A stretch of DNA of 32,000 bases from Paenibacillus montaniterrae (GCF_018403185.1 NZ_BOSE01000012.1:94194-126193); one strand, 5' to 3'. Shown: positions 6,802 to 30,292, numbered from the stretch's first letter. Notes: a model not told the origin generated them from the sequence alone. Numbers and translations are program-made.

Positions 6802-6843
6802 GACCACAAGGACGTGGCACGAAAAACCTAATCATGGAGGATG
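6802..6843 (+). promoter_or_regulatory. Flagellin-1 5' leader with two CsrA-type binding sites (GGA in a hairpin loop, and GGA over the Shine-Dalgarno)
   Basis: The hairpin has stem CCAC (6804-6807) paired with GTGG (6814-6817) and loop AAGGAC. The SD region CATGGAGGATG lies at 6833-6843. This is the same two-site layout known for the B. subtilis hag leader. Confidence 0.65.
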
Positions 6844-6849
6844 ATAACT

Positions 6850-8723: not shown

Positions 8724-8761
8724 AGTAAGTAGAATACAAAATGAACGTTAGGAGATTTAAA

Positions 8762-10989: not shown

Positions 10990-11012
10990 TTCAAACTTTA
11001 TATTATGAATAA

Positions 11013-12002
<990 letters not shown>

Positions 12003-12021
12003 ATATGTAAGGAGAACGAAA

Positions 12022-13182
12022 ATGCAATATTCTAGTTTAGTTACAGTTTCAGTAATTATTCCAATTCATAATGGTGCAGAATTTATAGAACAATGTTTAG
12101 AGTCAGTACTTAAACAGAAAGAAAATATCCACGAGATAATCGTTGTGAATGACGGCAGTACAGATGGAACAAGCGATATATTGAAACGTTATTCAGATCA
12201 AATCAAAATCGTCTCTTTTAATCAAAAAAGAGGAGTGTCGGTATCTAGAAATAATGGTGTTATTTTATCTCAGAGCGATTGGATTTTATTTTTAGATGCT
12301 GATGATATTTTAAGTGATGATTTTGTTAAGAAATATATTTTTACATTAAATAAAGAACCAAACGACACAATCTTAGTTTATTCTAAAGCAATTGAGATTA
12401 CTAAAGAAGGTAATATTACGAACATAATATATGAAGGATTTGACATGTTGAATGGGACTGCGTTTGGACATGAAATTGTAAGAAATAGAATTCTTCTTAC
12501 AGGTACTATGGTTAAAAGAGATTTATTTCTAAATGTAGGAGGGTTTAATGAGACGCTTACACACGGTGAAGATTGGGATTTATGGCTTAGATTGTCGAAA
12601 TATGGTGCTTTTAAATATGCTTCAACCACAGTTGTTTTTATCAGAAGACATGAGTCAAATTCTTCAGCAAAGCTAAATAGGATGCTTGAAGCTGAAAAAA
12701 CAATAATTAAACAGTATTCATTGCGTGAAATAAAATATAGTATCTCTAAACGAAAGCTTAGTGAATTAGATAATATATCAGACTATTTATTTTTGTTACT
12801 AAAAATAGAGGAATATAAGTTATGTAAAGATGAATTAAATGAATATTTAAACAATAGCCAACAATCAGATATTCTACTGTTTGTTGATGCCTTAATCCAT
12901 TGGAACGAACAAAATTGGATACAAGCAAAAGAGAGCTTATTTTTAGCAATTAGTTATAAAATTAAGGCAGAGTATCATAATAATCTTGGTGCTATCTTTC
13001 TAGTTGAAAAAGAATTTGATAAAGCAAAAACGCAATTTGAAGCAGCACTTAGTATTCATGCAAATTATTTAGATGCAGCATATAACTTAGATTTAGCCAA
13101 AAGTCAGACCTCTGATTTAAAGCAGATAAGAATTACTTCAAGACCCTTACGTAAGAATTTAACATCGTATTCATCATTCTGA
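12022..13182 (+). CDS. Family-2 glycosyltransferase with a C-terminal TPR-like domain
   Basis: The N-terminus VSVIIPIHNGAEFIEQCLESVLKQ...IIVVNDGSTDGT...LDADD is the GT2 (GT-A, DxD) signature. The C-terminus YHNNLGAIFLVEKEFDKAKTQFEAALSIHANYLDAAYNLDLA is TPR-like. Confidence 0.85.
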   Translation: MQYSSLVTVSVIIPIHNGAEFIEQCLESVLKQKENIHEIIVVNDGSTDGTSDILKRYSDQIKIVSFNQKRGVSVSRNNGVILSQSDWILFLDADDILSDDFVKKYIFTLNKEPNDTILVYSKAIEITKEGNITNIIYEGFDMLNGTAFGHEIVRNRILLTGTMVKRDLFLNVGGFNETLTHGEDWDLWLRLSKYGAFKYASTTVVFIRRHESNSSAKLNRMLEAEKTIIKQYSLREIKYSISKRKLSELDNISDYLFLLLKIEEYKLCKDELNEYLNNSQQSDILLFVDALIHWNEQNWIQAKESLFLAISYKIKAEYHNNLGAIFLVEKEFDKAKTQFEAALSIHANYLDAAYNLDLAKSQTSDLKQIRITSRPLRKNLTSYSSF

Positions 13183-13220
13183 CTTAAATTTTCAGTGAGA
13201 CTATTCATAAGAGGTGTAGT

Positions 13221-14462
13221 ATGAAAAAAGTACTTTTTATAACTTATTACTTTCCACCGTATACTAGTAGTGGTGTTTTTCGTCCCTTGAAGTTCGTTAA
13301 ATATTTGATGAGAGAAGGAAGTTGGGAACCAATTATCCTAACTCTTAATCAGGATTCTTTTAAAGACAGGCCAAGAGATTACACTTTAAGCAAAAATATA
13401 CCTGAAGAACTGAAAATTTATTATGCCAACTCGTTAGAACCCAACCAAGACTCTACTAATAATTATAAGGAAATTTATAGAGAAGCACATATACCCGATC
13501 ATGCATATGGATCATTCATGCATTTTGTTATAAAGGCCTTACAAATTATTAAGGAACAAGAGATTAACCTTATTTTTTGTACCATTCCTCCATACACAAT
13601 GGGGTTAATCGGAACAACAATTAAAGAAATTACAAATATTCCCATGATTGTTGATTATAGGGATGGCTGGGTTAATGGGAATATGATGAATAAGTTCAGA
13701 ACTGAGGAAGGCAAACATATTAACACATACTTAGAAAATAAGTTATTGCAAAATGCAGATGCTGCTATTTTTGTTAATAGAGAAGTAGCAGAGGTATCAT
13801 TAAAGCAATTCCCTAAGATAAAACAATTAGTTGCTCCAAACGGTTACGATCTAGAGGATTTTAATAATCTGCGTAAAGTGAATACTAAAAAATTTAAGAT
13901 AGGAAATAAAAAACAGATTGTTTGGTGTGGACATATATATAATGACTACGTGGATCATATATTAAAAATGGCTCAAGCTATTAACGTTTTGAATGAAGAC
14001 GGGCATGACCTTGAGTTTGTGATTGCAGGAACTTTACAAAGTGAAGATATCTTAGAAAGATTAGAATTTAATTATTACTCACATATTCGTTTTTTAGGTA
14101 ATATTTCATATGAGGACTCAATCTTGCTTACGAACGATGCTGATATAAATTTTGGAGTACACATTTTAGAATATTCAATTGGAAGTAGATTTTACAATTT
14201 AATCCCTACATTTAAACCGATTATTGCGTTTTACAATACTGAGAATAAATATATCCCTAGATTTTTTGAAAACTACCCATTAAAAGAATTATTTTCATTA
14301 GACGCAAGTGTTAGGGGAATAAGCAACGGAATTGTAAGGTTGATAAATTCAAATTATAGAATGAATGGAAATAAGGTTATTGACTCTTATAAGGAATATA
14401 GTAGAGAGAATAATGCCTATAAATTAATAGATTTATTCAATCAAATAAGTTTAAGTCAGTAA
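13221..14462 (+). CDS. Putative GT-B fold glycosyltransferase (GT4-like)
   Basis: The N-terminus MKKVLFITYYFPPYTSSGVFRPLKFVKYL and VDYRDGW resemble the Glyco_trans_4 N-domain. The C-terminal nucleotide-sugar domain is degenerate by eye. Confidence 0.6.
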   Translation: MKKVLFITYYFPPYTSSGVFRPLKFVKYLMREGSWEPIILTLNQDSFKDRPRDYTLSKNIPEELKIYYANSLEPNQDSTNNYKEIYREAHIPDHAYGSFMHFVIKALQIIKEQEINLIFCTIPPYTMGLIGTTIKEITNIPMIVDYRDGWVNGNMMNKFRTEEGKHINTYLENKLLQNADAAIFVNREVAEVSLKQFPKIKQLVAPNGYDLEDFNNLRKVNTKKFKIGNKKQIVWCGHIYNDYVDHILKMAQAINVLNEDGHDLEFVIAGTLQSEDILERLEFNYYSHIRFLGNISYEDSILLTNDADINFGVHILEYSIGSRFYNLIPTFKPIIAFYNTENKYIPRFFENYPLKELFSLDASVRGISNGIVRLINSNYRMNGNKVIDSYKEYSRENNAYKLIDLFNQISLSQ

Positions 14463-14499
14463 GTTTTAGGTGAATGTACATAGCAGAGGTGTGGGGATT

Positions 14500-15630
14500 T
14501 TGTATAAACATGTACACATTGTAATTGATCATCTGTATACCAAGCAACTCTATGACTTTATACAATCCAAGTTTAATGATCATTACTTTATAGTAGTAGA
14601 TTTGGAGTTGGATACAGGAAGCGCTTATTTTAGTAATGCTAGTCTGAATATACGGAAATGCACAAAATCTGAAATAAAATCGGCTTCTACTACAAGTGAG
14701 CTATATCATGAAATATCTGCTTTTAAAAACATATTTATTCATTATCTTTATAATTTTTACTGCGACTTTTTTGTGAATCTTCCATTTAACAAATCCAATT
14801 TATATTGGATAGTATGGGGCGCGGATTTGTATGATTACATTCCTTTTGAAATATACGATGATAATGTAAAGCGAATGTTTCCTCAAAGCGTAAACAAGCC
14901 AAAGTACAGCGAGTTATTTTTAAAAAATAGAGCTTTGCTAATTTCAAAATTATCAGGTATTTGTACTACATCTGTCTTTGATTATAATTTGATTAAACAA
15001 TTTTATGAAACACAAGCTCCTAGAATAGAATTAGGATACAACACAAGTATATATTTAAACGAAGCTTATTGTCTTTCAATGAAGGAAATAGAAGGGGCGA
15101 GCTGTATCAGAGTATTGGTTGGAAATTCAGGAGATATTTCTAATAATCATCAAACTATATTCGAGTATCTAGATAAACTATTACCCTCAGATTCAGAGGT
15201 TATTGTTCCTTTATCTTATGGGAACAGGGAACATATCGAAGAAATCAAAAGAATTGGAAAAATGATACTAAAAAATAGAATGATTCCTCTTGAACAATTT
15301 ATGATATTTGAAGAGTATGTGCAATTAATAAGTAAAGTTAATTGCATAGTTATGAACCATAGAAGGCAACAAGCTGTGGGGAATGTTTTAATAGGATTAT
15401 ATTTAGGGAAAGCCGTATTTCTATCTGAAACATCACCAGTTTATTATGATCTCATAGATAAGGGCTTTATTATTTACAAGGCAGGGATGCTTAATAATAT
15501 TTCCTTAGAACAGTTTAGTGAGATCTGCAGCTTAAAATATGACCAAAACAAAGAAAGATTGAAAACTTATTTAGGAGCGGAGTATGTAGAACAACAATAC
15601 TCTAATTTTTTTCTTGATTTTAGTTCATAA
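14500..15630 (+). CDS. WecF-like 4-alpha-L-fucosyltransferase family protein (GT56, TDP-Fuc4NAc transferase family)
   Basis: YWIVWGADLYDY, RVLVGNSGDISNNHQTIFEYL and VIVPLSYGN match E. coli WecF blocks as I recall them (FWHIWGADLYEL, ILVGNSGDRSNEHIAAL, VVVPMGYPP). The start is uncertain: TTG 14500 lies 8 nt after GAGGTG, and the ORF track uses GTG 14470. Confidence 0.72.
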   Translation: MYKHVHIVIDHLYTKQLYDFIQSKFNDHYFIVVDLELDTGSAYFSNASLNIRKCTKSEIKSASTTSELYHEISAFKNIFIHYLYNFYCDFFVNLPFNKSNLYWIVWGADLYDYIPFEIYDDNVKRMFPQSVNKPKYSELFLKNRALLISKLSGICTTSVFDYNLIKQFYETQAPRIELGYNTSIYLNEAYCLSMKEIEGASCIRVLVGNSGDISNNHQTIFEYLDKLLPSDSEVIVPLSYGNREHIEEIKRIGKMILKNRMIPLEQFMIFEEYVQLISKVNCIVMNHRRQQAVGNVLIGLYLGKAVFLSETSPVYYDLIDKGFIIYKAGMLNNISLEQFSEICSLKYDQNKERLKTYLGAEYVEQQYSNFFLDFSS

Positions 15631-15667
15631 TTGCTCGCAAAATTACAAAACTTTATTTCGCGAGCAA
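15631..15667 (+). other. Inverted repeat (hairpin) directly after the GT56 stop codon
   Basis: TTGCTCGC (15631-15638) pairs with GCGAGCAA (15660-15667) as perfect 8-bp arms, extendable by AAA/TTT. No T-run follows. Confidence 0.4.
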
Positions 15668-15769
15668 TAGTCAATGTCTATATTAGAGAGTAAGTTTAGT
15701 AAGTTTAATTATTATTTCAGTGAAAATATAGAGTAAGTTCATTTTGATACAGGAAGGGAAAATCAACCA

Positions 15770-16645
15770 ATGAAAGGCGTTATTTTAGCCGCTGGTACTG
15801 GTTCAAGATTGTTTCCATTAACTAAATCAATATCCAAACATCTATTACCGATTTATGACAAGCCTATGGTGTATTACCCTCTGTCAGTACTTATGTTGTC
15901 TGAAATTAGAGAGATATGTATTATTACCAATGAAGAGGATAGATATTTATATGAAGCGTTGCTAGGAGATGGAAACCAATTTGGTATTTCAATAACTTAC
16001 TTATCACAAAAGAGCCCTAATGGAATAGCAGAAGCATTTTTAATAGCAGAAGAATTTATTGGACAAGAGACAGTATGTTTAATTTTAGGAGATAATGTTT
16101 TCTTTGGTCAAGGCTTCACTCCGGTCTTAAGAAAAGCAGTAAAATTGAAAGAGGGAGCAATTGTTTTCGGTTATCCGGTTCATGATCCTGAAAGATTTGG
16201 TATCGTACAATTTGATGAATGTAAAAATGCTATCTTGTTAGAGGAAAAGCCAAAAAATCCTTCATCTCAATATGCTGTGACAGGCTTGTATTTTTACGAT
16301 AGCTCTGTAGTTAATATAGCTAAAACTTTAAAAGCCTCTGAGCGAGGTGAATTAGAGATTACAGATGTAAATAAAGCATATTTAGAAAGAAAAAAGTTAA
16401 AGGTTGAAATACTTGGTCGAGGATTTACATGGTTAGATGCAGGAACCTTTAGTAGCTTGTTGGAAGCTAGTCAATTTGTAGAAACAATCGAGAAGCGGCA
16501 GGGTTATAAGATTGCATGTTTGGAAGAAATTGCATTCAACCAAGGTTGGATTACACAGGAAGAAGTTTTGAGTACAGCTAGACGATATAAAAATAATGAC
16601 TACGGAAAATATTTATTTAAGTTAGTAGGTGATATACTTGATTAA
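15770..16645 (+). CDS. rmlA: Glucose-1-phosphate thymidylyltransferase RmlA
   Basis: MKGVILAAGTGSRLFPLTKSISKHLLPIYDKPMVYYPLSVLM and YLSQKSPNGIAEAF, GDNVFFG, LEITDVN are canonical RmlA/RfbA motifs. The protein is 291 aa. Confidence 0.93.
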   Translation: MKGVILAAGTGSRLFPLTKSISKHLLPIYDKPMVYYPLSVLMLSEIREICIITNEEDRYLYEALLGDGNQFGISITYLSQKSPNGIAEAFLIAEEFIGQETVCLILGDNVFFGQGFTPVLRKAVKLKEGAIVFGYPVHDPERFGIVQFDECKNAILLEEKPKNPSSQYAVTGLYFYDSSVVNIAKTLKASERGELEITDVNKAYLERKKLKVEILGRGFTWLDAGTFSSLLEASQFVETIEKRQGYKIACLEEIAFNQGWITQEEVLSTARRYKNNDYGKYLFKLVGDILD

Positions 16646-17783
16646 ATTTAACATTGCTCCAGTAGCGGGACAAGAAATAGAATTCATTCAAGATGCAATA
16701 AATTCCAGACATTTATGCGGAGATGGAAAATATACAGAGCTATGCAGTAAATGGTTAGAGAAAACAACCGGAACACCCAAAGTGTTACTAACAACAAGCT
16801 GTACACATGCGTTGGAAATGGCTGCACTCTTATTTGATATAAAACATGGTGATGAAGTAATTATGCCGTCATATACGTTTGTATCGACTGCTAATGCTTT
16901 TGTACTGCGTGGTGCTAAAATTATATTTGTCGATATACGTCCTGATACTATGAATATTGATGAAACAAAAATAGAGGCGGCTATCACTAACAGAACTAAA
17001 GTTATAGTTCCTGTCCATTACGCTGGTGTTGCATGTGAGATGGACACAATAATGAATATTGCTGAGCGATACAATTTATATGTGGTAGAAGATGCTGCGC
17101 AAGGTATTATGTCTACATATAAAGGAAGAATGTTAGGTAGTATTGGGCATCTAGGTACCTTTAGCTTTCATGAAACGAAAAATCTTGTTTGTGGGGAAGG
17201 AGGTGCGCTATTAGTAAACGATAGAAGACTTATAGAGAGAGCAGAAATTATTAGGGAAAAGGGAACAAATCGTTCACAGTTTATTAGTGGACGGGTTGAT
17301 AAATATACGTGGAGAGATATAGGGTCATCATATCTAATGTCCGAACTTACAGCTGCATATTTATATTCACAACTAATTAATGCACAGTATATTACTAAAA
17401 AGAGATTGAAATTATGGAGTATATATTACCAATACTTATATAATTTTATTGATATTTACGATATAGAGCTTCCTTGTATACCAAATACGGTAGAACATAA
17501 TGGTCACCTATTTTTCATTAAACTAAAGAATAAGAAAACAAGAGATAACTTAATTGAATATTTGAAAGATCGAGGTATACAAGCAACGTTCCATTACATT
17601 CCTCTTCATACAACAGAAACTGGAAAGAAATACGGGGAGTTTCATGCCTCTGATAATATGACTTGTGAGCAAAGTGATAAATTATTAAGACTACCGATGT
17701 TTTTTTCTTTAGAAGAGGAAACAGTAATACAAATCTGCAATGTAGTAGTAGATTACCTTAAGAAGGCGAGGGAGAAAATATGA
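16638..17783 (+). CDS. dTDP-4-amino-4,6-dideoxyhexose transaminase, WecE/RffA-like (PLP-dependent, DegT family)
   Basis: Long blocks match E. coli WecE as I recall it: GDEVIMPSYTFVSTANAFVLRGAKIIFVDIRPDTMNIDE, VIVPVHYAGVACEMDTIM, VVEDAAQGIMSTYKGR, FSFHETKN, ERAEIIREKGTNRSQF and VDKYTWRDIGSSYLMS. The start is TTG 16638 (giving MIKFNIAPV) or GTG 16629, and it overlaps the rmlA stop. Confidence 0.9.
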   Translation: MIKFNIAPVAGQEIEFIQDAINSRHLCGDGKYTELCSKWLEKTTGTPKVLLTTSCTHALEMAALLFDIKHGDEVIMPSYTFVSTANAFVLRGAKIIFVDIRPDTMNIDETKIEAAITNRTKVIVPVHYAGVACEMDTIMNIAERYNLYVVEDAAQGIMSTYKGRMLGSIGHLGTFSFHETKNLVCGEGGALLVNDRRLIERAEIIREKGTNRSQFISGRVDKYTWRDIGSSYLMSELTAAYLYSQLINAQYITKKRLKLWSIYYQYLYNFIDIYDIELPCIPNTVEHNGHLFFIKLKNKKTRDNLIEYLKDRGIQATFHYIPLHTTETGKKYGEFHASDNMTCEQSDKLLRLPMFFSLEEETVIQICNVVVDYLKKAREKI

Positions 17784-18979
17784 AAGGACAGAAAATTATG
17801 ATCGTAGCTGGAGGTGAGTGGCAGGTACCTATTATAAAAAAGGCTAAACAACTGGGGCTTCGTGTAATGAATACCAATTTGTATCAAGATTCTCCAGGCT
17901 TCCAATATGCTGATGAAAGTGCAGTTGCTGATGTCCTGGACTATAAAACCAATTTGCAGATAGCGGAGGCTTATAAACCTAATGCGATTATTACTGATCA
18001 GAGTGATATTGCGGTAAAAACAGTAGCACGGTTATGTGAAAGACTGAAACTAAAGGGAATTACTGAAAAGATTGCTGATCTATTTACGAATAAGTATCTT
18101 ATGAGAATGTTTTGCAAGGAACATGGATTTGATATACCAAGATTTGAACTATGCTGCAGTTTGCAGGAAGCTGAGACAGCATCCGAAAAAATCGGTTATC
18201 CGCTTGTAATGAAGCCTTTAAGAAATCAATCTAGCAGAGGTGTGTTTGTAGTTTATAATAAGGCCGAACTATTCCAAAAGTTCAATTTAACCCTTCAATT
18301 TTCTGAATCTGGTGAAGTGTTAGTTGAGGAATTTATTGACGGTAAAGAATTTACTGTAGAAGGATTCATGTTCAGTGATCGCCACATATCATTGGCAGTA
18401 TCAGCAAAGGATTATTTAAAAGATAATATTGCGATAGCAACAAGATTGGTATATAGTCATGAAAATTTTGATTTTAACTACGATTGTTTGAAAATTCAAA
18501 ATAATAATTTAGTAGAAACAATGAAACTCCCTTTTGGTATTACACATGCTGAGTACAAATACAAAGAGGGGAGGTTCTACTTGATTGAAATTGCAGCTCG
18601 AGGAGGAGGTACTAAAATTTCTTCTGATATCGTTCCACTAGTTTCGGGTGTTGACGTAAATGAACTACTTATAAGAAGTGCCTTGGGAGAGGAAATAAAA
18701 TCAGGGGATATTTCCCTAATGCAAAAATCAGTTGCGATTTTAGATTTTTTTATACTACCAACAGGAAGAGTTAAGAGTATCATAGGTGCGGAAGAGATAA
18801 CAATGATTCCAGGAGTAGTTGATTTTAAATTAAATTTTAAAGCGGGAGATACAATAAGTACACCTAATGATGATCGTTCTAGAGTAGGTTACTATATTGC
18901 ACATGCATCCTATAAGGAGAGTTTACTTTCCTTGGCTGAATATATTAAATTGAAGTTGAAGGTAATTTACGATGAATAA
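17780..18979 (+). CDS. ATP-grasp domain protein (carboxylate-amine ligase family), copy 1
   Basis: YPLVMKPLRNQSSRGVFVV, LVEEFIDGKEFTVEG and YLIEIAARGGG are ATP-grasp motifs. The ATGA start overlaps the transaminase stop. Confidence 0.8.
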   Translation: MKGQKIMIVAGGEWQVPIIKKAKQLGLRVMNTNLYQDSPGFQYADESAVADVLDYKTNLQIAEAYKPNAIITDQSDIAVKTVARLCERLKLKGITEKIADLFTNKYLMRMFCKEHGFDIPRFELCCSLQEAETASEKIGYPLVMKPLRNQSSRGVFVVYNKAELFQKFNLTLQFSESGEVLVEEFIDGKEFTVEGFMFSDRHISLAVSAKDYLKDNIAIATRLVYSHENFDFNYDCLKIQNNNLVETMKLPFGITHAEYKYKEGRFYLIEIAARGGGTKISSDIVPLVSGVDVNELLIRSALGEEIKSGDISLMQKSVAILDFFILPTGRVKSIIGAEEITMIPGVVDFKLNFKAGDTISTPNDDRSRVGYYIAHASYKESLLSLAEYIKLKLKVIYDE

Positions 18980-19736
18980 ACTGAACATATTTGATTCGCA
19001 TTTGCATTTTAATATGAATACGGCAGATCCTTATAAGGATCTAGTAACACAAATAACTTCTAGTCAAATGAAAGGCTGCTTGTTAATTTTAAATTATGAA
19101 AATGAACGGAATTATTTTATGAATAATATACAACTTTTACAAGCTCTTGATATTCAACTCGAAGTTGCTCTTATGCTTGATTTTCAAAACATAGATTACG
19201 AAATTATTAAACAGTGTTACTTGAAGAACATTGAGTTTTCAATTAAAATCCACCCTCGTCTCTCTAATATTACTTTAGGTGACTTTAATAAAATCCTCCT
19301 CGCACTTCAGAAAATTAATTACAAACATATCATAGTTGATGGATTTTATTATGGGCCTAATTTAAGGTCACATATAAATATTGAGCTATTAATTTTTTTG
19401 TCAAAATACTTACCCAGTAAAAGAATTCTCTTTGCTCATTCTGGAGGTCATAAGATATTAGAAACAATGCTATATACTAGGAATTTAGACAATATATATT
19501 ATGACTTGTCATTCACACAAAATTATTTTAAAAATACTTCGATCAGCCTTGATATTATTAATTTTATTAAATTTAACTACGGTAAAATTTTATTCGGTTC
19601 GGATTACCCAGAATTTTCGATAGAAGACAGTAAAAAACAGTTGTTAATTTATATGAATAAAGCAGGGTTGAGTTTCGAGGCTCAGAATAAAATTTTAATT
19701 GAAAATAGTTTGAGTTTTTTTCGAGATGGAGGATAA
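18972..19736 (+). CDS. Amidohydrolase-2 superfamily (TIM-barrel metal-dependent hydrolase, hydratase or decarboxylase family) protein
   Basis: The N-terminal IFDSHLHF (HxH), KIHPRLS, FAHSGG and GSDYPE follow the ordered ligand pattern of amidohydrolase-2 proteins. The protein is 254 aa. Confidence 0.65.
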   Translation: MNKLNIFDSHLHFNMNTADPYKDLVTQITSSQMKGCLLILNYENERNYFMNNIQLLQALDIQLEVALMLDFQNIDYEIIKQCYLKNIEFSIKIHPRLSNITLGDFNKILLALQKINYKHIIVDGFYYGPNLRSHINIELLIFLSKYLPSKRILFAHSGGHKILETMLYTRNLDNIYYDLSFTQNYFKNTSISLDIINFIKFNYGKILFGSDYPEFSIEDSKKQLLIYMNKAGLSFEAQNKILIENSLSFFRDGG

Positions 19737-19740
19737 GTAT

Positions 19741-20373
19741 ATGCAAAAAAAAATTATAGAGTATATAAAGAAGAATAGGGTTTCTTCGACGGAAATAGCC
19801 GACTGTCTAGGTAAACAAGGAGTAGTGTCAGGTGTTAAAGCAATAAATAGAGGGAAATTTAAAGTAGGGAATGTTTTTTGGGTCTATGCATACGGGGGAA
19901 GTAATTGGGATATGCATGAACAAATTCAGGGGGTAAAAGAAGGAGATGTAGTTTTTATTGAAGTGTTTGATTGTGAGGACAAAGCAATATTTGGGGATCT
20001 AGTAGCCAAGTATTTGCTACTTTATAGACAAGCAAGCGCAATTGTTGTAAATGGTAATGTACGTGATGTTCCAAGACTAATTAAGGAAAACTGGCCGATT
20101 TGGTGTGTTGGATATAATCCTGTTGGGTGCCATAATGAAAAATTAGATTTTGAGCTAGATAAAAAAATAATAGACAATAAAAGACAAATTTATAGTGGCG
20201 CTATAGCAGTTTGTGATGATACTGGCGTAGTAATAATTCCAAAAGAGTGTATAAATGATGATTTCATGATTAGGATGGAAGAAATCGAAGAACAAGAAGA
20301 TATTTGGTTTGACTGTATTGATAGGAAAAAAATGAGTACTTTTGAGACTGTCTGTTTGAAAAAGTATTTATAA
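19741..20373 (+). CDS. RraA-like / class II aldolase-like (HMG/CHA aldolase, oxaloacetate decarboxylase family) protein
   Basis: STEIADCLGKQGV, GDVVFIEV, AIFGDLVAKYLLLYRQASAIVVNGNVRDVPRL and PIWCVGYNPVG fit the RraA/demethylmenaquinone-methyltransferase-like fold pattern. The start is ATG 19741, 8 nt after GGAGG. The ORF-track start at 19726 overlaps the upstream gene. Confidence 0.68.
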   Translation: MQKKIIEYIKKNRVSSTEIADCLGKQGVVSGVKAINRGKFKVGNVFWVYAYGGSNWDMHEQIQGVKEGDVVFIEVFDCEDKAIFGDLVAKYLLLYRQASAIVVNGNVRDVPRLIKENWPIWCVGYNPVGCHNEKLDFELDKKIIDNKRQIYSGAIAVCDDTGVVIIPKECINDDFMIRMEEIEEQEDIWFDCIDRKKMSTFETVCLKKYL

Positions 20374-20396
20374 TCCTGATTGGAAGTGGTGCCAAG

Positions 20397-21086
20397 ATGA
20401 AAATTTCGAATAAAGACCTAAGAAGTATAATCGAGCGTTACGAAGATAGATATAGTAAATATGGCTATTCTCCAATTACATTAGGTTGGGATAAAGGCAA
20501 ACAATTTATTCGTTTTGATATTTTATTAGATTACTTTGACTTGGATAACCGTACTTTTCTTGATATAGGATGCGGGTTTGGAGACCTTTGTTTTTATTTA
20601 AATCAAAAAGTTTCTGCCTTTCAGTATCTTGGTGTCGATATTGTTCCTAAGTTAATAGAGATTGCCAATGAGCGTTATTCTAATAATACAACTATGTTTC
20701 TGGAAGGGGATTTCTTAAACATGGAATTTATGGAAAACTCCTTTGACTATGTTATTGGTTCAGGTATTTTTAATTTTAAACTGCAAGATGTTGATAACTA
20801 CGAATATGTTTATTCTATTATGAAAGAAAGTTTTTATGTAGCTAGACACGGAGTTGCTTTTAATTTTTTATCCGATCAGGTAGATTTTCATAAAGAAATA
20901 ACTTTTCATTCAAATCCACTAAAGATTTTGGAGTTTGCTTATAGTTTATCAAAAAATGTAGTACTTCGGAATGATTACATGCCATTTGAATTTACAATAT
21001 ATATATTTAAAGATGATTCTTTCCATAAAGCTGATACTTTGTTTAATAAATATAAAGAAGAAAAAGGGATAAGAAATGTTTTCTAA
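20397..21086 (+). CDS. Class I SAM-dependent methyltransferase
   Basis: Motif I FLDIGCGFGDL is followed by YLGVDIVP and FDYVIGSGIF. The protein is 229 aa. Confidence 0.8.
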   Translation: MKISNKDLRSIIERYEDRYSKYGYSPITLGWDKGKQFIRFDILLDYFDLDNRTFLDIGCGFGDLCFYLNQKVSAFQYLGVDIVPKLIEIANERYSNNTTMFLEGDFLNMEFMENSFDYVIGSGIFNFKLQDVDNYEYVYSIMKESFYVARHGVAFNFLSDQVDFHKEITFHSNPLKILEFAYSLSKNVVLRNDYMPFEFTIYIFKDDSFHKADTLFNKYKEEKGIRNVF

Positions 21087-22236
21087 AACCATAGAAAGAT
21101 TAAATCGCCCTGCCTCTATGAGAATCGCATCTTTGGCAAAAAAATTAAAAGCTGGTGGACACGACATTCTTGATTTAACGTTGGGGCAGCCTGACTTACC
21201 AGTACACTATAATATTATTGAATCGGTTCACGAATGCTTGCTTAGTGGAAAGACAGGTTATACAGAATCTCAAGGTATATTAGAACTAAGAGAACAAATC
21301 AGTGTATATGAAAGTGAAAAATGGGGATATCCAATTTCTGCTGATCAAGTATTAGTATCCCCTGGGGGAAAGCAAGCTATTTATTATGCGCTGAGAACAT
21401 TAGTTAATCCATTAGACGAAGTTATTATAATTGAGCCTTGTTGGCTGAGTTATAAAGAGTTAATTGAGATGGTTGGTGGTAAAGCGGTTATACTTAATAC
21501 GGACCCTAATAAAAATTTTGTTGTTTCTATTCATGAGATATTAGCGAAGATCACCTCTAAAACTAAAGCTATTATCTTAAATGTACCAAATAATCCAACA
21601 GGGTCCATTTATCCATCAGATACTATTAAAATGTTAATCCGATATTCCGCAGCGCATCAAATTTTCTTAATATTTGATAATATATATGATGAAATTATTT
21701 TTGATGATGAGAAGATAGAATATTCTTTGGAACCACTACAGTGTGAAAAGCTTATAATAGTAAACGGATTTTCTAAAAGCTTTTCCATGACAGGCTTTAG
21801 AGTAGGCTATGTCATTAGCCATGAGATTATAATGGAGCAAATGATAAAGGTTCATGAGCAGTTAGCTACATGCACATCAATTGTTTCACAATATGCAGCT
21901 TTAGCTGCATTGAGAATTGAAAAATCTTATTTAGAAAAACGAAAAGAGGTATTTGAAAGAAGGAGAGATTTTGTTGTAAACAGATGTAGGGAATTAAATA
22001 TAGATCTAATAGTTCCTCAAGGTGGGATTTATTGTTTGATCGATACACGTAGTATTAACTCAAGTTCTGTTGTAGCAGCGGAAAAAATATTGCAACATGC
22101 ACTAGTTGCTGTAATACCTGGAGTTGTATATGGTATCTCTAGTGAAGGTTATGTTCGAATCTCGTTAGTGGGAGATGAAGCAATATTAGAGGAAGCACTG
22201 AAGCGAATAAGCGATTTGATGGAATTGACTTTATAA
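21076..22236 (+). CDS. PLP-dependent aminotransferase, class I/II (aspartate-aminotransferase fold)
   Basis: SPGGKQA, NVPNNPTG and the PLP-lysine motif NGFSKSFSMTGFRVGY are present, with a C-terminal VRISL. The protein is 386 aa. Confidence 0.88.
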   Translation: MFSKTIERLNRPASMRIASLAKKLKAGGHDILDLTLGQPDLPVHYNIIESVHECLLSGKTGYTESQGILELREQISVYESEKWGYPISADQVLVSPGGKQAIYYALRTLVNPLDEVIIIEPCWLSYKELIEMVGGKAVILNTDPNKNFVVSIHEILAKITSKTKAIILNVPNNPTGSIYPSDTIKMLIRYSAAHQIFLIFDNIYDEIIFDDEKIEYSLEPLQCEKLIIVNGFSKSFSMTGFRVGYVISHEIIMEQMIKVHEQLATCTSIVSQYAALAALRIEKSYLEKRKEVFERRRDFVVNRCRELNIDLIVPQGGIYCLIDTRSINSSSVVAAEKILQHALVAVIPGVVYGISSEGYVRISLVGDEAILEEALKRISDLMELTL

Positions 22237-22360
22237 AAGACTTTATAAAGATTGTTGGAGTTAAGTGAATGATTTGGTGTAAATTTTAAAATATATGCAG
22301 ACGATACTAACCAGTATGAGAAATAATTTGTTAAATCAAATTTGTTAAGGGGGTTCGAAG

Positions 22361-23389
22361 GTGTATATATTAGTTACAGGAGGAGCTGGCTTTATTGGTT
22401 CAAATTTTATTGAGTATTATCTACAACAACATCCTGATGTGAAAATAGTAAATTTGGATTTACTCACCTATGCAGCTCATTTGCAGAATCTAGAGAGCTG
22501 TAATCAGAGTAACAAATACAGTTTTGTACATGGAGACATATGTGACAGGGATCTCGTTAAACATTTGTTTGAACATTATAATTTTGAAGGTGTAATTCAT
22601 TTTGCAGCGGAATCACACGTAGATAATTCTATTAAGAATCCCAGTTCTTTTGTTACTACAAATATCAACGGAACTTTTACATTGTTAAGTGTTGCTCAAC
22701 AGCATTGGATGAAAGCTCCATTTAAGTATAAAAGAAATTATGAACATTGTAGATTTCTTCACATTTCGACTGATGAGGTATACGGGACTTTAGGTAAAAC
22801 GGGGTACTTCACAGAACAATCGCCATATGCACCTAATAGTCCTTATTCTGCTAGTAAGGCAGCCTCAGATTTTTTAGTACGGAGTTACTACCATACTTAT
22901 GGTTTGAATGTGGTCACGACAAATTGCTCAAACAATTATGGCCCAAGACAGCATGATGAAAAGTTTATTCCTACTATTATTCGTAAAGCTATTTCTTTTG
23001 AGCCAATTCCTATATATGGAACTGGACTTAATATAAGGGATTGGCTGTATGTTAAGGAGCATTGTCGTGCTATTGATCTTGTATTTAACAATGGTAAGGT
23101 AGGAGAGACCTATTTAATAGGTGGAAGTAATGAGCATTCTAACATGAATATTGCACTATTGGTATGCTCTATTCTTGATGAATTATTGGTAGACGAACTT
23201 CAACATAAAGAAGTAACTTCCTTTACGGAACTAATAGAATTTGTAAATGATCGTGAAGGTCACGATTTTAGGTACGCTATAGATGCTAGTAAAATAAAAA
23301 AAGAATTAGGTTGGTTTCCACAAGGTAATTTTGAAGTGTTGTTAAGGGAAACAATATTATATTATTTAGATCGATATCAATTGAAGTGA
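22361..23389 (+). CDS. rmlB: dTDP-glucose 4,6-dehydratase RmlB
   Basis: ILVTGGAGFIGSNF, NLDLLTYAA, HFAAESHVDNSI, STDEVYG, SPYSASKAASD and NCSNNYGPRQHDEKFIP are canonical RmlB motifs. The GTG start lies 7 nt after AAGGGGG. Confidence 0.93.
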   Translation: MYILVTGGAGFIGSNFIEYYLQQHPDVKIVNLDLLTYAAHLQNLESCNQSNKYSFVHGDICDRDLVKHLFEHYNFEGVIHFAAESHVDNSIKNPSSFVTTNINGTFTLLSVAQQHWMKAPFKYKRNYEHCRFLHISTDEVYGTLGKTGYFTEQSPYAPNSPYSASKAASDFLVRSYYHTYGLNVVTTNCSNNYGPRQHDEKFIPTIIRKAISFEPIPIYGTGLNIRDWLYVKEHCRAIDLVFNNGKVGETYLIGGSNEHSNMNIALLVCSILDELLVDELQHKEVTSFTELIEFVNDREGHDFRYAIDASKIKKELGWFPQGNFEVLLRETILYYLDRYQLK

Positions 23390-23417
23390 ATAGCAGACTA
23401 TAAAGTGAGGAAAGTCA

Positions 23418-24350
23418 ATGACAAACATACTTATAACAAGTGCTGCAAATAAAGTGCCATTAATAGAATGTTTTAAAAAATTGTTAGGGTTCTCGGCTAA
23501 GATTTTTATTGCAGATTGTGCAGACAATAATATAGCAAAATACTTTGCAGATCAGTTTATTAAAGTTGTACCTTTAAAAGACTCTGTTATTGAGGACTAT
23601 ATTTTATTATGTAGAAAATATCAAATAAAATATATCATTCCTACAAGAGAAGAGGATTTGCTATTTTTTTCACTTTATAGAGATCGACTGGAAATTCAAG
23701 GGGTATATGTTCTTGTATCCTCAGTGGAAGCAATTAGAATTACAAATGATAAACTTAAATTTTACAAAGTTTTAAATGCTGAAAATTTACCTGTCATTCC
23801 TACTTTCTTGACGACAGAACAGTTCCATGAAAAAACAAGATTAGTAGTGAAAGAACGATTTGGGGCAGGATCGAAGAAAATATTCGTTAACTTAGATAAG
23901 GAGCAAGCAGTACAAGTATCGTACCAGCTAGAGAATCCAATAGTTCAGCCTTATATAGTTGGAAAAGAATACAGTGTAGACGTTTACATTACAAGGAAAA
24001 AGCAGGTTAAGGCAGTAGTAGTTCGTGAACGTCAACTTATAGTCGATGGAGAATCACAGATTACAAAAGTCTTAGATCATCCAAGCATATCAGGCTTAAT
24101 CAGCAAAGCAGCGTTGCTGTTGGGCTTAGAAGGCCATGTTATGTTTCAAGTTTTTGAAGATGAGCATGAAATGCTATGGATAATAGAATGCAATGCTCGG
24201 ATTGGAGGAGCTTCTACCTTAAGTATGTATGCTGGATTAGACTCTATTAATTGGTGGATTTCAGAATGTGGCGGAAAAAATGTTGCAGAATCGCCAGTAG
24301 TGATAAAAAAGATAAAGCAAGTTCGTTATAAAAAGGATTTACTTTTATGA
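23418..24350 (+). CDS. ATP-grasp domain protein, copy 2 (310 aa)
   Basis: LVVKERFGAGSKKIF, VQPYIVGKEYSVDVY and WIIECNARIGGAS are ATP-grasp motifs. The fold is the same as the 17780 gene but the sequences clearly differ. Confidence 0.8.
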   Translation: MTNILITSAANKVPLIECFKKLLGFSAKIFIADCADNNIAKYFADQFIKVVPLKDSVIEDYILLCRKYQIKYIIPTREEDLLFFSLYRDRLEIQGVYVLVSSVEAIRITNDKLKFYKVLNAENLPVIPTFLTTEQFHEKTRLVVKERFGAGSKKIFVNLDKEQAVQVSYQLENPIVQPYIVGKEYSVDVYITRKKQVKAVVVRERQLIVDGESQITKVLDHPSISGLISKAALLLGLEGHVMFQVFEDEHEMLWIIECNARIGGASTLSMYAGLDSINWWISECGGKNVAESPVVIKKIKQVRYKKDLLL

Positions 24351-25042
24351 GAAAAGTGATTGTTTTTGATTTGGATGATACACTATATGATGAATATGAA
24401 TATGTGAAAAGTGGGTTCCAAGCAGTTAGTGAATACCTATGGAGAGAATTTGGATTTGATACAAATGAAACTTATAACCGGATGTGGAACAGTTTAAAGT
24501 GTGAGGGTAGAGGAACCATATTTGATGGTTTGCTGAAATACTTTGGAATAACTCAACGAAAATATGTTAAAAAATGTTTATCAGTTTATCGGTTACATCA
24601 ACCAGAAATAATTTTACCTAAAGAGTCTAATGAAATACTGAGACAGTTGCACAAAAAAGTACCGCTATATTTAGTCACAGATGGGAATAAGGTTGTTCAG
24701 GCAAATAAGATTTATGCTTTAAGGTTAGAGATGTACATGAAAAAGTGCTATATTACTTACCGGTATGGTCATGCTAAAAGTAAACCATCCCCGTATTGTT
24801 TCCAGCTTATAGCAAAAAGCGAAGGGGTATCGACTGCAGATATTGTTTATATAGGGGATAATCCTAAAAAAGATTTTGTTGGAATCAAGCCGCTCGGCTT
24901 TAGAACAATTAGGGTGATGACAGGACAGCATTCTCAAGTAGAGATGCCTATACAATACGAGGCAGAATTAAGAATTAATCATATTTCTGATTTGATTCCT
25001 GCTTTAAAGCAAATATGGTGCAATTTTGTAATCGAGGGATAA
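24347..25042 (+). CDS. HAD-superfamily hydrolase or phosphatase
   Basis: Motif I is VIVFDLDDTLYDE (DxDxT), motif II is LVTDGN, and motif IV is YIGDNPKKDF. The ATGA start overlaps the upstream stop. Confidence 0.82.
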   Translation: MRKVIVFDLDDTLYDEYEYVKSGFQAVSEYLWREFGFDTNETYNRMWNSLKCEGRGTIFDGLLKYFGITQRKYVKKCLSVYRLHQPEIILPKESNEILRQLHKKVPLYLVTDGNKVVQANKIYALRLEMYMKKCYITYRYGHAKSKPSPYCFQLIAKSEGVSTADIVYIGDNPKKDFVGIKPLGFRTIRVMTGQHSQVEMPIQYEAELRINHISDLIPALKQIWCNFVIEG

Positions 25043-25047
25043 TTGTT

Positions 25048-25770
25048 ATGAATGTAATCGTTATAATTCAAGCAAGGATGGGATCTAAAAGACTACCTGG
25101 AAAAGTACTGAAAAAACTTGGAAGTACAGATGCTTTAAATTATTGTGTAAAGCGATGTAGCAAGATTAAAGGAGTTTCAGATGTAATTATTGCGACTTCA
25201 AACTTATCTCAAGATGATGCTATCGTTCAATGGTGCAAAACGTATAATGTCAAGTTCTTTCGAGGCTCTGAGGAAGATGTACTAGAAAGGTACGTTCAAT
25301 GCGCATGTACTTACAACCCCAAGTACGTGATACGTGTAACGGCTGATTGTCCGTTTGTAGACTATGAAATGGCTAGTGGTATAGTAGATTTTATTAAGCA
25401 GCAGCAGGTCGATATAGTAGATTTGGGAGCGACCTTGCCACGAGGCCTTGCGGTAGAAGCAATTTCCTACTCCGCCCTGCAATATATAGATCAGCATGGT
25501 CAGGAGCCGCGCCACCGCGAGCATGTGACCTACTATGCCTATGAATACAAAGATCAATTTACTAGAGCTACGTATCAACCGCCTAAAAATCGTTTGCATC
25601 CTGAGCTGCGCATTACACTGGATACAGAGGAAGATTACACGATGCTTGCTGCCGTAGCCCAGCATTTCAATGATCCGTATATACCCAGCAGCGAGGTCAT
25701 TAAGTACTTGCTTGAGCATCCTGAAATTGCTGCGTTAAATGCTCATGTGGAGCAAAAGCCAGTCATATGA
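25048..25770 (+). CDS. pseF: SpsF-type cytidylyltransferase, a putative CMP-nonulosonate (pseudaminic acid) synthetase
   Basis: MNVIVIIQARMGSKRLPGKVL and VIRVTADCPF are SpsF/acylneuraminate-cytidylyltransferase-family motifs. It is directly coupled to pseG. The start is ATG 25048; the ORF-track start at 25015 overlaps the HAD gene. Confidence 0.78.
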   Translation: MNVIVIIQARMGSKRLPGKVLKKLGSTDALNYCVKRCSKIKGVSDVIIATSNLSQDDAIVQWCKTYNVKFFRGSEEDVLERYVQCACTYNPKYVIRVTADCPFVDYEMASGIVDFIKQQQVDIVDLGATLPRGLAVEAISYSALQYIDQHGQEPRHREHVTYYAYEYKDQFTRATYQPPKNRLHPELRITLDTEEDYTMLAAVAQHFNDPYIPSSEVIKYLLEHPEIAALNAHVEQKPVI

Positions 25771-26753
25771 AGCAAGTATTAATAAGAACGGACGCTTCTA
25801 CTGCCATTGGCAGCGGGCATGTGATGCGGTGCCTGACAATAGCGAAGCATTTAAGGCGATTAGGCCATCATATACAGTTTTGGATGGAAATGCTGCCAGG
25901 TAATCTCATCGATTTGGTGCAGAGAGAAGGGTTTTCTGTAACAGAGCAGGAGATTGCTGTTGATCTGCTTATTGTAGATCATTATCAGCTGGACATAGAG
26001 TGGGAGCAAGCGATGCGGGCTGTGGCCAACAAAATCGTTGTTATTGACGATCTGGCTAATCGGCGCCATGACTGTGATTTACTGCTCGATCAAAATGTTG
26101 TTGCAGGCTATAAGCAGCGCTATGATCAATTGGTACCGGAGCATTGCATAAAGCTGCTTGGCCCTGCTTATTTAATTATGCGTGATGAATTTATTGAAGC
26201 TAGACAGCTTGCCGAGGTTCGTGATGGACATGTGCAGCGCCTGCTTGTATTTATGGGCGGCAGCGATCCAACTGGTGAAACGCTCAAGGTGCTGGATGCT
26301 TTAAGGCAAACTGCAACCAGCTTCAAGCATGTTGACATCGTGGTTGGCAGCAGCAATCCAAGTCGCGATTCAATAAAGCAGTATTGTGCAGAGCTGCAGC
26401 TTCATTATCATTGCCAAATTAACTATTTAGCGGAGCTAATGCGGCTTGCAGACTTTGCAATTGGAGCAGGCGGCTCGGCTATGTGGGAGCGCTGCTTTGT
26501 TGGCTTGCCGTCCTCAAGCACTGTGGTGGCGGACAATCAGCGTCTGACGACAGACAAGGCGACTGAGCTGGGAGCTATTATTCATTTGGGCTGGCACGAA
26601 GATGTCACTTCTGCCAGCTATTTGCGGCTATTGGATCAATTGCCGTTGCTTGGTGATCAGCTTGCAGCAATGAGCAGGCAAGGATTGACTATAACGGAAA
26701 GCCAGGGGAGTGCTAACGCTTGGCTTCAAGAAATGGTGGGGTTATTTGCGTGA
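25767..26753 (+). CDS. pseG: UDP-2,4-diacetamido-2,4,6-trideoxy-beta-L-altropyranose hydrolase PseG
   Basis: The N-terminus VLIRTDASTAIGSGHVMRCLTIAKHL, DHY and GGSD match the PseG/SpsG family pattern. At 328 aa it has no fused acetyltransferase domain. Confidence 0.87.
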   Translation: MKQVLIRTDASTAIGSGHVMRCLTIAKHLRRLGHHIQFWMEMLPGNLIDLVQREGFSVTEQEIAVDLLIVDHYQLDIEWEQAMRAVANKIVVIDDLANRRHDCDLLLDQNVVAGYKQRYDQLVPEHCIKLLGPAYLIMRDEFIEARQLAEVRDGHVQRLLVFMGGSDPTGETLKVLDALRQTATSFKHVDIVVGSSNPSRDSIKQYCAELQLHYHCQINYLAELMRLADFAIGAGGSAMWERCFVGLPSSSTVVADNQRLTTDKATELGAIIHLGWHEDVTSASYLRLLDQLPLLGDQLAAMSRQGLTITESQGSANAWLQEMVGLFA

Positions 26754-28938: not shown

Positions 28939-28950
28939 GAAGAAGCAAGC

Positions 28951-30276: not shown

Positions 30277-30292
30277 AGCGAGGTAAGCCGAT

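Follow-up and report, generated by a model that had tools for sequence, protein, structure and literature searches.

An ATP-grasp ligase and RraA-like gene cassette as a candidate N-acyl donor pathway for amino sugars in a flagellin glycosylation island of Paenibacillus montaniterrae

The pathway for 4-acetamido-4,6-dideoxygalactose (Fuc4NAc) of the enterobacterial common antigen (ECA) comprises RmlA, RmlB, WecE, the acetyl-CoA-dependent WecD and WecF. Counterparts of RmlA, RmlB and WecE, all scoring above their family cutoffs, together with a WecF-like glycosyltransferase of family GT56, are encoded in a 32,000-nucleotide stretch of the Paenibacillus montaniterrae genome (GCF_018403185.1, NZ_BOSE01000012.1:94194-126193; the window hereafter), where WecD is, by contrast, absent and an ATP-grasp ligase and four candidate acid-building or tailoring enzymes stand in its place. 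These five genes (17780-22236), whose proteins also include an amidohydrolase-fold protein, an RraA-like protein, an S-adenosylmethionine (SAM)-dependent methyltransferase and a class I aminotransferase, form the module under study. The target differs as well, since the ECA sugar enters a lipid-linked polymer and the one made here would enter a flagellin glycan; according to a 2026 paper, flagellar glycans had until then not been reported to contain 4-amino-4,6-dideoxygalactose (Fuc4N).

Amino-acid-acylated flagellin sugars, which the initial annotation had named as precedents, are documented in clostridia. The flagellin of Clostridium botulinum carries an N-methyl-glutamyl legionaminic acid (Leg5GluNMe7Ac), and that of type B Clostridium difficile a peptidyl-amido group, taurinyl-Ala-Gly, on 3-amino-3,6-dideoxygalactose (Fuc3N). 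The likeness to P. montaniterrae lies in a Gram-positive flagellin with an amino sugar bearing an amide-linked, sometimes N-methylated, amino acid or peptide, whereas the clostridial acyl groups are ordinary amino acids and the sugar here is a 4-amino-4,6-dideoxyhexose. RraA, ATP-grasp and amidohydrolase proteins are unmentioned in papers on the flagellar glycosylation islands of C. botulinum, Geobacillus and Clostridium. A Treponema glycan contains D-Asp on Fuc4N, and Vibrio anguillarum V-123 produces 2,4-dihydroxy-3,3,4-trimethylpyroglutamoyl 4-amino-4,6-dideoxyglucose (Qui4N), the acyl skeleton of which can be read as that of HMG (4-hydroxy-4-methyl-2-oxoglutarate) with two C-methyl groups and a nitrogen added. 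Other oxoprolyl N-acyl groups occur on the 3-amino-3,6-dideoxyglucose (Qui3N) of Plesiomonas shigelloides O74 and the Fuc3N of Vibrio cholerae O5. These hydroxy-methyl-5-oxoprolyl glycans have sugars of the class considered here, acylated with glutamate lactams that are branched, hydroxylated and methylated. The V. anguillarum group matches a set of aldolase, methyltransferase, cyclic amidohydrolase and ligase, with no gene-level link found, while the two 3-hydroxy-3-methyl oxoprolyl types of P. shigelloides O74 and V. cholerae O5 do not fit a pyruvate-aldol skeleton. The existence of the C. botulinum, C. difficile, Treponema and V. anguillarum glycans makes the products proposed below plausible.

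At the level of the single enzymes, the LigJ/LigK (and LigI) proteins of protocatechuate 4,5-cleavage present the same two folds side by side, and the aldolase residues R123, D124, D102, N71 and H75 are conserved in the module. Their pathway is, however, catabolic and the context here biosynthetic, the aldolase residue K147 is replaced by Asn, the LigK model scores 66 against a cutoff of 304.5, the amidohydrolase is nearer to dihydroorotases and uncharacterised proteins, and no aromatic-degradation genes lie nearby. The L-amino acid ligases BacD/YwfE, BL00235, RizA and DdaF share the ATP-grasp fold, the LAL_C2 domain and acyl-phosphate chemistry with the ligase of the module, but the nucleophile proposed here is a nucleotide-sugar amine instead of an amino acid and the equivalog scores are about 48 against 840-850 bits. 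Branched glutamates are also made by aldolase-plus-transaminase routes, as with the ProA-type aldolase in monatin synthesis, and 3-methylglutamate in lipopeptides by the methyltransferase-plus-transaminase route of GlmT/IlvE. In both routes a 2-oxo-dicarboxylate is built or methylated and then transaminated, a likeness of logic; the products enter free metabolite pools or non-ribosomal peptide synthetase lines and not a sugar amine. A search of about 8 million full texts finds no paper with the gene combination of the module, in agreement with the initial annotation, which knew of no description.

All five genes lie on the plus strand between wecE and rmlB, in the order and of the families first proposed. 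The ATP-grasp ligase with its LAL_C2 domain (17780-18979, 399 amino acids) is followed by the amidohydrolase-fold TIM-barrel protein (18972-19736, 254 amino acids), the RraA-like protein (19726-20373, 215 amino acids as the longest open reading frame (ORF)), the class I SAM methyltransferase (20397-21086, 229 amino acids) and the aminotransferase of the aspartate aminotransferase (AspAT) type (21076-22236, 386 amino acids). For the RraA-like gene a start at 19741 (210 amino acids) is favoured by a GGAGGA ribosome-binding site and by the gene call in a public assembly, which uses the second ATG. The junctions overlap or nearly abut: the wecE stop and the ATP-grasp start share the sequence ATGA, 8 nt are shared by the ATP-grasp and amidohydrolase genes, the RraA-like start at 19741 follows the amidohydrolase stop after 4 nt, a gap of 23 nt precedes the methyltransferase gene, and the methyltransferase and aminotransferase genes overlap by 11 nt. 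The five ORFs are real and not due to chance, as they are long ORFs in DNA of 32% GC with significant family matches and have all been called independently as genes in public assemblies, the RraA-like gene with a different start. Counts of promoters and terminators equal those in shuffled sequence and carry no information on operon structure.

The module thus lies directly downstream of the transaminase gene that would create the sugar 4-amine. WecE (16629..17783, plus strand), a dTDP-4-amino-4,6-dideoxyhexose transaminase, passes two NCBIfam models, PRK11706 (618.1 bits, cutoff 375) and TIGR02379 (621 bits, cutoff 434.85), and is predicted to make the acceptor amine for the module; the matches are compatible with either a galacto- or a gluco-configured product, since TIGR02379 passes too. 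No GNAT or hexapeptide acetyltransferase is encoded among the window ORFs of at least 100 amino acids, so that WecD and PseH are both missing, as the initial annotation had stated for acetyltransferases. The translational coupling to wecE, the embedding among rmlA, wecE, rmlB and a WecF-like GT56 gene without an acetyltransferase, and the cross-phylum conservation of the core pair described below argue for a sugar-acylating unit, and bear out the proposed tie between the five genes and the 4-amino sugar.

The ATP-grasp protein matches the Pfam families ATP-grasp_4 (E = 4.5e-12, 46.3 bits, cutoff 27) and LAL_C2 (E = 5.3e-14, 52.7 bits, cutoff 29.4). Among PDB sequences it is nearest to 4DIM (1e-20), followed by BL00235 (3VOT, 3e-15), an L-amino acid ligase, and the residues K145, E183, H256, E258, E270 and R274 are invariant in 76 family members. 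The named L-amino acid ligase equivalogs BacD (47.6 bits against 850) and DdaF (48.7 against 840) both fall below cutoff. On its relatives and its retained catalytic residues, which include those that bind ATP and Mg, the protein looks like an active carboxylate-amine ligase, in keeping with the amide-linking role first assigned to it. PurT- or PurK-like formylation or N-carboxylation was rejected as its activity, the LAL_C2 domain and the L-amino-acid-ligase relatives being a better fit. The entry 4DIM from Anaerococcus prevotii, matched over residues 4-304, is a structural-genomics deposit named 'phosphoribosylglycinamide synthetase' and may be a mis-named member of the sugar-acylating ligase group.

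The RraA-like protein matches the Pfam family RraA-like (PF03737; 2.6e-23, 83.3 bits, cutoff 24.5), and its best sequence match is the aldolase for HMG and CHA (4-carboxy-4-hydroxy-2-oxoadipate), 3NOJ (3.9e-13). The AlphaFold2 (AF2) model, with a predicted local distance difference test score (pLDDT) of 96.3, has an alpha-beta-beta-alpha fold for which 3NOJ is the top Foldseek match (E = 1.8e-14, template modelling (TM) score 0.73), ahead of the short RNase E regulators. Residues were mapped by alignment onto the roles given for 3NOJ in PMC5065237, where Arg-123 is essential and stabilises the enolate and Asp-124 is a metal ligand. The R123-D124 pair corresponds to R113-D114, which is invariant in 20 orthologues, and G101-D102 to G90-D91, of which G90 is invariant and D91 present in at least 90% of the same 20, giving the spacing D-X21-R-D. 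The aldolase residues N71, H75 and G144 are kept as N60, H64 and G134, and Arg-40 is replaced by an invariant Lys. As regards the second metal ligand, Glu-199, the pairwise alignment ends at residue 178; E188, E191 and D192 are invariant in the C-terminal helix, which is strongly conserved (IEEQEDIW...CIDRKK...CLKKY). The model of the RNase E regulator RraA (PRK09372) gives 29.5 bits against a cutoff of 136. With the catalytic core kept and the LigK and RraA equivalog scores both failing, the protein represents a subfamily of its own, which combines a class II pyruvate aldolase/oxaloacetate decarboxylase core with an altered distal pocket and is of the aldolase/decarboxylase type, not an RNase E regulator. 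The initial claim of an RraA-fold aldolase is supported by the core residues R113-D114, D91, N60 and H64 and by the match to the 3NOJ fold, while the counterparts of K147 and T145 are replaced. About 1,900 relatives remain at 90% clustering, the best 120 of which are 57-73% identical to the window protein, and orthologues are 55-73% identical across phyla.

Signature peptides of the RraA-like protein are found in 219 of 185,579 species-representative genomes. The carriers belong to more than 10 phyla, including Firmicutes, Campylobacterota, Planctomycetota, Verrucomicrobiota (with an Akkermansia sp.), Bacteroidota (Bacteroidales), Gastranaerophilales, Actinomycetota and Hydrogenedentota, as well as the archaea Methanospirillum and ANME-2 (anaerobic methanotrophic archaea). 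Eighty-five fetched loci were examined by blastp, clustering and hidden Markov models derived from the clusters, and accessory genes were counted in the 66 loci with at least 4 kb on either side. An orthologous ATP-grasp gene occurs in 80 of the 85 loci, on the same strand as the RraA-like gene in all 80 and directly adjacent to it in 48, and a sugar aminotransferase of the DegT/WecE type lies within 300 bp of the cassette in 33/85 loci and within 3 kb in 53/85. The conserved core is thus the ATP-grasp and RraA-like pair. Among the 66 loci this pair is accompanied by the amidohydrolase and methyltransferase in 23, by no accessory gene in 21, by the amidohydrolase only in 11, by the class I aminotransferase only in five and by the methyltransferase only in three; two loci fall under 'All four', and one RraA-like locus lacks a detected ATP-grasp gene. 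The amidohydrolase, present in about half of the loci, and the methyltransferase (28/66) are a nested accessory pair, the former occurring in 25/28 loci with a methyltransferase and 11/38 without (Fisher p = 1e-6), while the class I aminotransferase, with identities of only 28-39%, was recruited as an infrequent addition. The proposed unit of RraA-like protein, amidohydrolase-2 protein and aminotransferase is therefore not borne out by neighbourhood mining, which recovers that trio in only 2/66 loci besides the window. The full five-gene set occurs twice more, contiguous and beside wecE in a Hydrogenedentota metagenome-assembled genome (MAG; L010) and, with a flagellar Maf/NeuB setting, in a MAG of Clostridia (L014).

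Pfam annotation of the loci of three organisms gives a concordant picture of the cassette. In Nautilia, genes for RmlA, RmlB, GT56, ATP-grasp, amidohydrolase, RraA-like, DegT and Wzx proteins lie next to pglB; in Phosphitispora the ATP-grasp/amidohydrolase/RraA-like trio occurs with Maf, GT56 and WecE; and Campylobacter devanensis encodes the same trio in a third context. Identity of the RraA-like orthologues to the window protein is flat over all sugar contexts (medians 58-62%), while the median identity of the ATP-grasp proteins follows the context, with 46% (up to 58%) beside wecE, 39% beside other degT genes and 30% in nonulosonic-acid loci. This pattern suggests that the RraA-like enzyme may handle common free small metabolites to give a common acid, and that each acceptor sugar has a ligase fitted to it. 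The system appears to come in two flavours. A GNAT or hexapeptide acyltransferase, or a second, 'sugar-transfer-associated' ATP-grasp protein (ATPgrasp_ST), is encoded in 16 of the 30 loci that lack the amidohydrolase and in none of the 36 that have it (p = 2e-7). This split suggests that the acyl group bears a reactive function, most simply and probably an amine, which would either receive a cap, through acylation or peptide extension, or else be acted on by the amidohydrolase, in combination with methylation or without it. Such acyltransferase or second ATP-grasp loci include L029, L055, L066, L072, L084, L042, L053 and L065, among others, with a GNAT, PglD-like hexapeptide acyltransferase or ATPgrasp_ST gene directly beside the RraA-like gene.

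The three accessory enzymes of the window differ in how well they fit their first assignments. The amidohydrolase matches Amidohydro_2 (PF04909) exactly at cutoff and over residues 119-251 only (E = 7.2e-06, 26.4 bits). Its family profile finds 3IRS (8e-16), the LigI-like 2FFI (9e-4) and decarboxylases (1e-4 or weaker) in the PDB, and its AF2 model (pLDDT 94.8, predicted TM score 0.92), a (beta/alpha)8 TIM barrel, has as Foldseek neighbours the uncharacterised clostridial protein 3CJP, the dihydroorotases of Campylobacter jejuni, E. coli and Aquifex, 3IRS and TatD, with ACMSD only at rank 26. H10 and H12 of the strand-1 HxH motif, K92 (strand 4), H156 and D211 (strand 8) are conserved in close homologues, the first His of the motif being variable in the wider family; this residue set resembles cyclic-amide hydrolases more than LigI, LigJ or decarboxylases. 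Since the nearest structures are uncharacterised proteins and dihydroorotases, the hydratase or decarboxylase role of a LigJ/LigI-type enzyme envisaged by the initial annotation is not favoured. The methyltransferase matches Methyltransf_25, 31 and 11 above cutoffs (about 1e-12 to 1e-14), has an intact SAM motif (LDIGCGFGD, with D56, G58, G60 and D63 invariant in 23 sequences) and carries a family-specific N-terminal motif. The best PDB matches of its family profile, ToxA, phosphoethanolamine N-methyltransferases and BamL, extend over the Rossmann core only; it is an accessory enzyme, N-methylation being a weak guess. The aminotransferase matches Aminotran_1_2 (3e-60) and, as best PDB entry, the subgroup Ib-like AspAT 1O4S of Thermotoga (1.7e-75), scores below cutoff with the AspAT equivalog NF041091 (asp_aminotase_Arch; 362.4 bits against 550), and retains all cofactor and alpha-carboxylate residues, K234, R361, N173, Y204 and D201 being invariant in nine cassette-linked homologues. 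It is an intact enzyme of the class I (aspartate) type first assigned to it. It also contains the GGKQA sequence, the lysine of which binds the distal carboxylate in AspAT-type enzymes. This lysine was rejected as proof of a dicarboxylate substrate, as any transaminase that uses Glu/2-oxoglutarate needs it.

From these assignments a pathway can be outlined in which the module would build a non-acetyl N-acyl group and attach it to a dTDP-4-amino-4,6-dideoxyhexose of the Fuc4N type, a reading to which we give roughly even weight. The observations are the gene content, the coupling, the conserved catalytic residues and the synteny across phyla; the identity of the acid, every chemical step and the order of the steps are drawn from family chemistry and synteny. 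RmlA, RmlB and WecE would provide the dTDP-4-amino-4,6-dideoxyhexose. The RraA-like protein, as a metal-dependent class II pyruvate aldolase/oxaloacetate decarboxylase, would generate a pyruvate enolate, perhaps by decarboxylation of oxaloacetate, which would make the step irreversible, and condense it with another 2-oxo acid, the product being an HMG-type 4-hydroxy-2-oxo-dicarboxylate. The AspAT-type aminotransferase may then convert the 2-oxo group to an amine, yielding a branched hydroxy-glutamate analogue, and the ligase would activate a carboxylate as an acyl phosphate for attack by the sugar 4-amine, forming the amide. The dihydroorotase-like amidohydrolase is guessed to close or open a lactam of the 5-oxoproline type or a lactone, and the methyltransferase to add an N- or C-methyl group, before GT56 probably transfers the acylated sugar into the flagellin glycan. 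Our best guess for the acyl structure is a branched glutamate- or oxoproline-type group, and its specific HMG-type skeleton is put forward only tentatively. Equally tentative is the generalisation that the cassette, widely transferred, uses pyruvate and oxaloacetate to make branched hydroxy/methyl glutamate- or 5-oxoproline-type acids de novo and joins them through an amide bond to amino sugars in over 200 species of bacteria and archaea. On this doubtful extension, the acceptors would be dTDP-4-amino-6-deoxyhexoses and nonulosonic-acid precursors of flagellin, O-antigen and cell-wall glycans, and the cassette would supply the missing oxoprolyl genes of Vibrio and Plesiomonas. No Vibrio or Plesiomonas locus is among the 80 loci retrieved. 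In 5,426 complete E. coli genomes blastn finds nothing that matches the stretch from the ATP-grasp to the RraA-like gene, and the plasmids searched hold only RraA relatives of 26% identity, with no link to a known O-antigen structure. An aldolase acting on a 4-keto sugar to give a branched-chain sugar was rejected, as it leaves the fixed ligase and aminotransferase partners unexplained.

Several observations weigh against this pathway. Where the aldolase has K147, a residue that matters for catalysis, the RraA-like family invariably has Asn (N137), and T145 has given way to Cys (C135), so that the substrate may differ from HMG or CHA, and the LigK/PcmE equivalog TIGR02798 scores 66.1 bits against a cutoff of 304.5. 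The class I aminotransferase is present in only 8/85 loci; elsewhere, either its place is taken by housekeeping transaminases or the acyl group is usually something other than an amino acid. The role of the amidohydrolase as an accessory tailoring enzyme, in ring closure or opening or in hydrolysis, is a guess, and a sugar hydroxyl, as in anthrose or modified viosamine, is a possible alternative target of the methyltransferase. The window also holds a pseudaminic acid (Pse) branch without PseH, and hence another amine acceptor in the same island. The co-occurrence statistics are uncorrected for phylogeny, and some loci duplicate one protein (L001/L002, L003/L004). In a first rival explanation the ATP-grasp protein attaches an ordinary Asp or Glu, with the remaining enzymes acting afterwards or peripherally: N-methylation as in Leg5GluNMe7Ac of C. 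botulinum, deprotection by the amidohydrolase, and a balancing of oxaloacetate, aspartate and pyruvate pools by the AspAT-type and RraA-like proteins. The LAL_C2 domain and the L-amino-acid-ligase relatives would suit this, as would the AspAT-like aminotransferase, the amine N-methyltransferases that are the nearest solved relatives of the methyltransferase, and the known decorations D-Asp on Fuc4N, N-acetyl-Asp on Qui4N and N-methyl-Glu on legionaminic acid. It is nevertheless considered unlikely, as it leaves unexplained an RraA-like protein that is 55-73% identical across phyla and fixed beside the ligase in 80/85 loci, and which, rather than the methyltransferase or aminotransferase, is the most constant partner of the ligase; nor does the supply of oxaloacetate or pyruvate need a dedicated enzyme.

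Modification of the Pse branch, for example of its UDP-4-amino intermediate in place of acetylation by PseH, is suggested by the presence of PseB, PseC, PseG and PseI in the window and by eight other loci in which the cassette lies among NeuB, PseB, PseC and CMP-transferase genes. However, the ATP-grasp start overlaps the wecE stop, the window ATP-grasp protein groups with those of WecE contexts (median 46%, up to 58%) and not of nonulosonic-acid contexts (30%), and a second ATP-grasp gene with a HAD gene, a DUF4910 gene and a formyltransferase-like gene beside the Pse genes can serve that branch, which makes this explanation quite improbable. Bacterial glycans commonly contain uronic acids with amino acids in amide linkage, and ATP-grasp chemistry permits either polarity, so the ligase could in principle activate a uronic-acid carboxylate and link to it an amine-bearing small molecule made by the other enzymes; the window has no UDP-sugar 6-dehydrogenase, though, and the cassette is strongly associated with sugar aminotransferases, leaving this a very remote prospect. 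Still harder to credit is that the five genes are unrelated passengers, the AspAT being a housekeeping enzyme, the RraA-like protein an RraA that regulates RNase E and the methyltransferase a generic one. Housekeeping members do exist in each family and the promoter/terminator scan is silent on an operon, but the gene starts and stops overlap, the block has the low GC of the island, synteny extends across more than 10 phyla, and the RraA-like protein scores only 29.5 bits against 136 with the E. coli-type RraA model and keeps the aldolase catalytic residues. A protect/deprotect pair, with the methyltransferase forming a methyl ester and the amidohydrolase serving as esterase, was set aside, its support being the co-occurrence of the two genes. 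The assembly of a non-acetyl acyl group and its ligation to the WecE product is the best explanation.

The module forms part of a larger island. The source organism is identified by the RraA-like and amidohydrolase proteins of the window, which are 100% identical to deposited P. montaniterrae proteins. The window encodes the flagellar proteins FlgN, FlgK, FlgL, FliW, FlaG, FliD and FliS and two flagellins (6841-7671 and 7839-8651), followed from about 9.1 to 31 kb by glycosylation genes, all co-directional, the first of which codes for a Maf-type flagellin glycosyltransferase. Neither Pfam nor NCBIfam gives a match for a 134-amino-acid ORF (8741-9145) that lies between maf and the second flagellin gene. 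GC content is 0.327 across 9145-25042, against 0.43-0.45 in the flanking flagellar and downstream genes, as is typical of an acquired island, and this glycosylation island, the five genes included, looks horizontally acquired.

Two nucleotide-sugar branches, dTDP and Pse, can be distinguished in the island. In the former, WecE is joined on the plus strand by RmlA, a glucose-1-phosphate thymidylyltransferase (15770..16645; TIGR01207, 442.5 bits, cutoff 360.65), by RmlB, a dTDP-glucose 4,6-dehydratase (22361..23389; TIGR01181, 444.6 bits, cutoff 365.1), and by the WecF-like GT56 protein (14470..15630; Glyco_transf_56, E = 5.8e-20), which scores 170 bits with NCBIfam PRK02797.1-5, under the cutoff of 457. 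A GT56 gene lies beside the cassette again in about 8-10 other loci, and GT56 is likely the transferase for the modified 4-amino-4,6-dideoxyhexose. The Pse branch, at 11019-12002 and 23418-31090 and complete but for PseH, comprises PseB (11019), PseG (25767), PseI (26720) and PseC (27793), all above NCBIfam cutoffs, and a PseF-like cytidylyltransferase (25015). Candidate modifiers of this branch are a PylC-like ATP-grasp protein with a HAD hydrolase (23418-25042), a DUF4910/DUF2172/HTH_47 protein (28951), which we take to belong to the family of C. jejuni Cj1295, and an ArnA-N-like, formyltransferase-like protein (30293). The Pse of the island is probably also non-canonically N-acylated. The same pairing of PylC-like ATP-grasp and HAD genes as downstream of the module in the window is seen in C. 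devanensis (L001, 6016-7532), where it is apparently split or frameshifted and lies divergently beside the trio.

Further arrangements are seen elsewhere among the loci. Cohnella sp. CFH 77786 has two copies of the cassette (L007, L008), with ATP-grasp, amidohydrolase, methyltransferase, RraA-like and WecE genes, on different scaffolds. In Lachnospiraceae and further Clostridia (L042, L053, L065, L085 (about 10.6-13.5 kb) and other loci), genes for a GtrB/ArnC-like polyprenol-phosphate glycosyltransferase of family GT2 and a PMT_2-like GT-C membrane protein come after the cassette, which suggests that a three-component glycosylation system, periplasmic or extracytoplasmic, delivers the acylated sugar there and that flagellin is not its target. 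Archaeal RraA-like orthologues, from Methanospirillum (L062, L083) and ANME-2 (L048), share 54-59% identity with that of the window; genes for WecE, ATP-grasp, amidohydrolase and methyltransferase proteins flank the orthologue of Methanospirillum purgamenti, a gene set that points to inter-domain transfer of the cassette.

Although not a categorically new system, the cassette is a candidate for a dedicated N-acyl donor pathway for amino sugars, of which no description was found in the full texts searched. The N-acyl groups of bacterial amino sugars influence antigenicity, recognition by phages and the immune system, and the function of flagella, and most of the non-acetyl ones have no assigned genes; the cassette offers a cloneable candidate for one such pathway. 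With two to five genes it is small, and its occurrence in a low-GC island, across phyla and in archaea shows it to be portable, with carriers in human- and animal-gut lineages such as Lachnospiraceae, Bacteroidales and Akkermansia. RraA-fold proteins are often mis-annotated as menaquinone methyltransferases or RNase E regulators. Should the RraA-like protein prove to be an acid-building aldolase, it would give RraA-fold enzymes a biosynthetic function and their first anabolic role, would make a new sugar modification predictable from genomes, and would provide glycoengineering with enzymes for making branched glutamate analogues and acylated nucleotide sugars.

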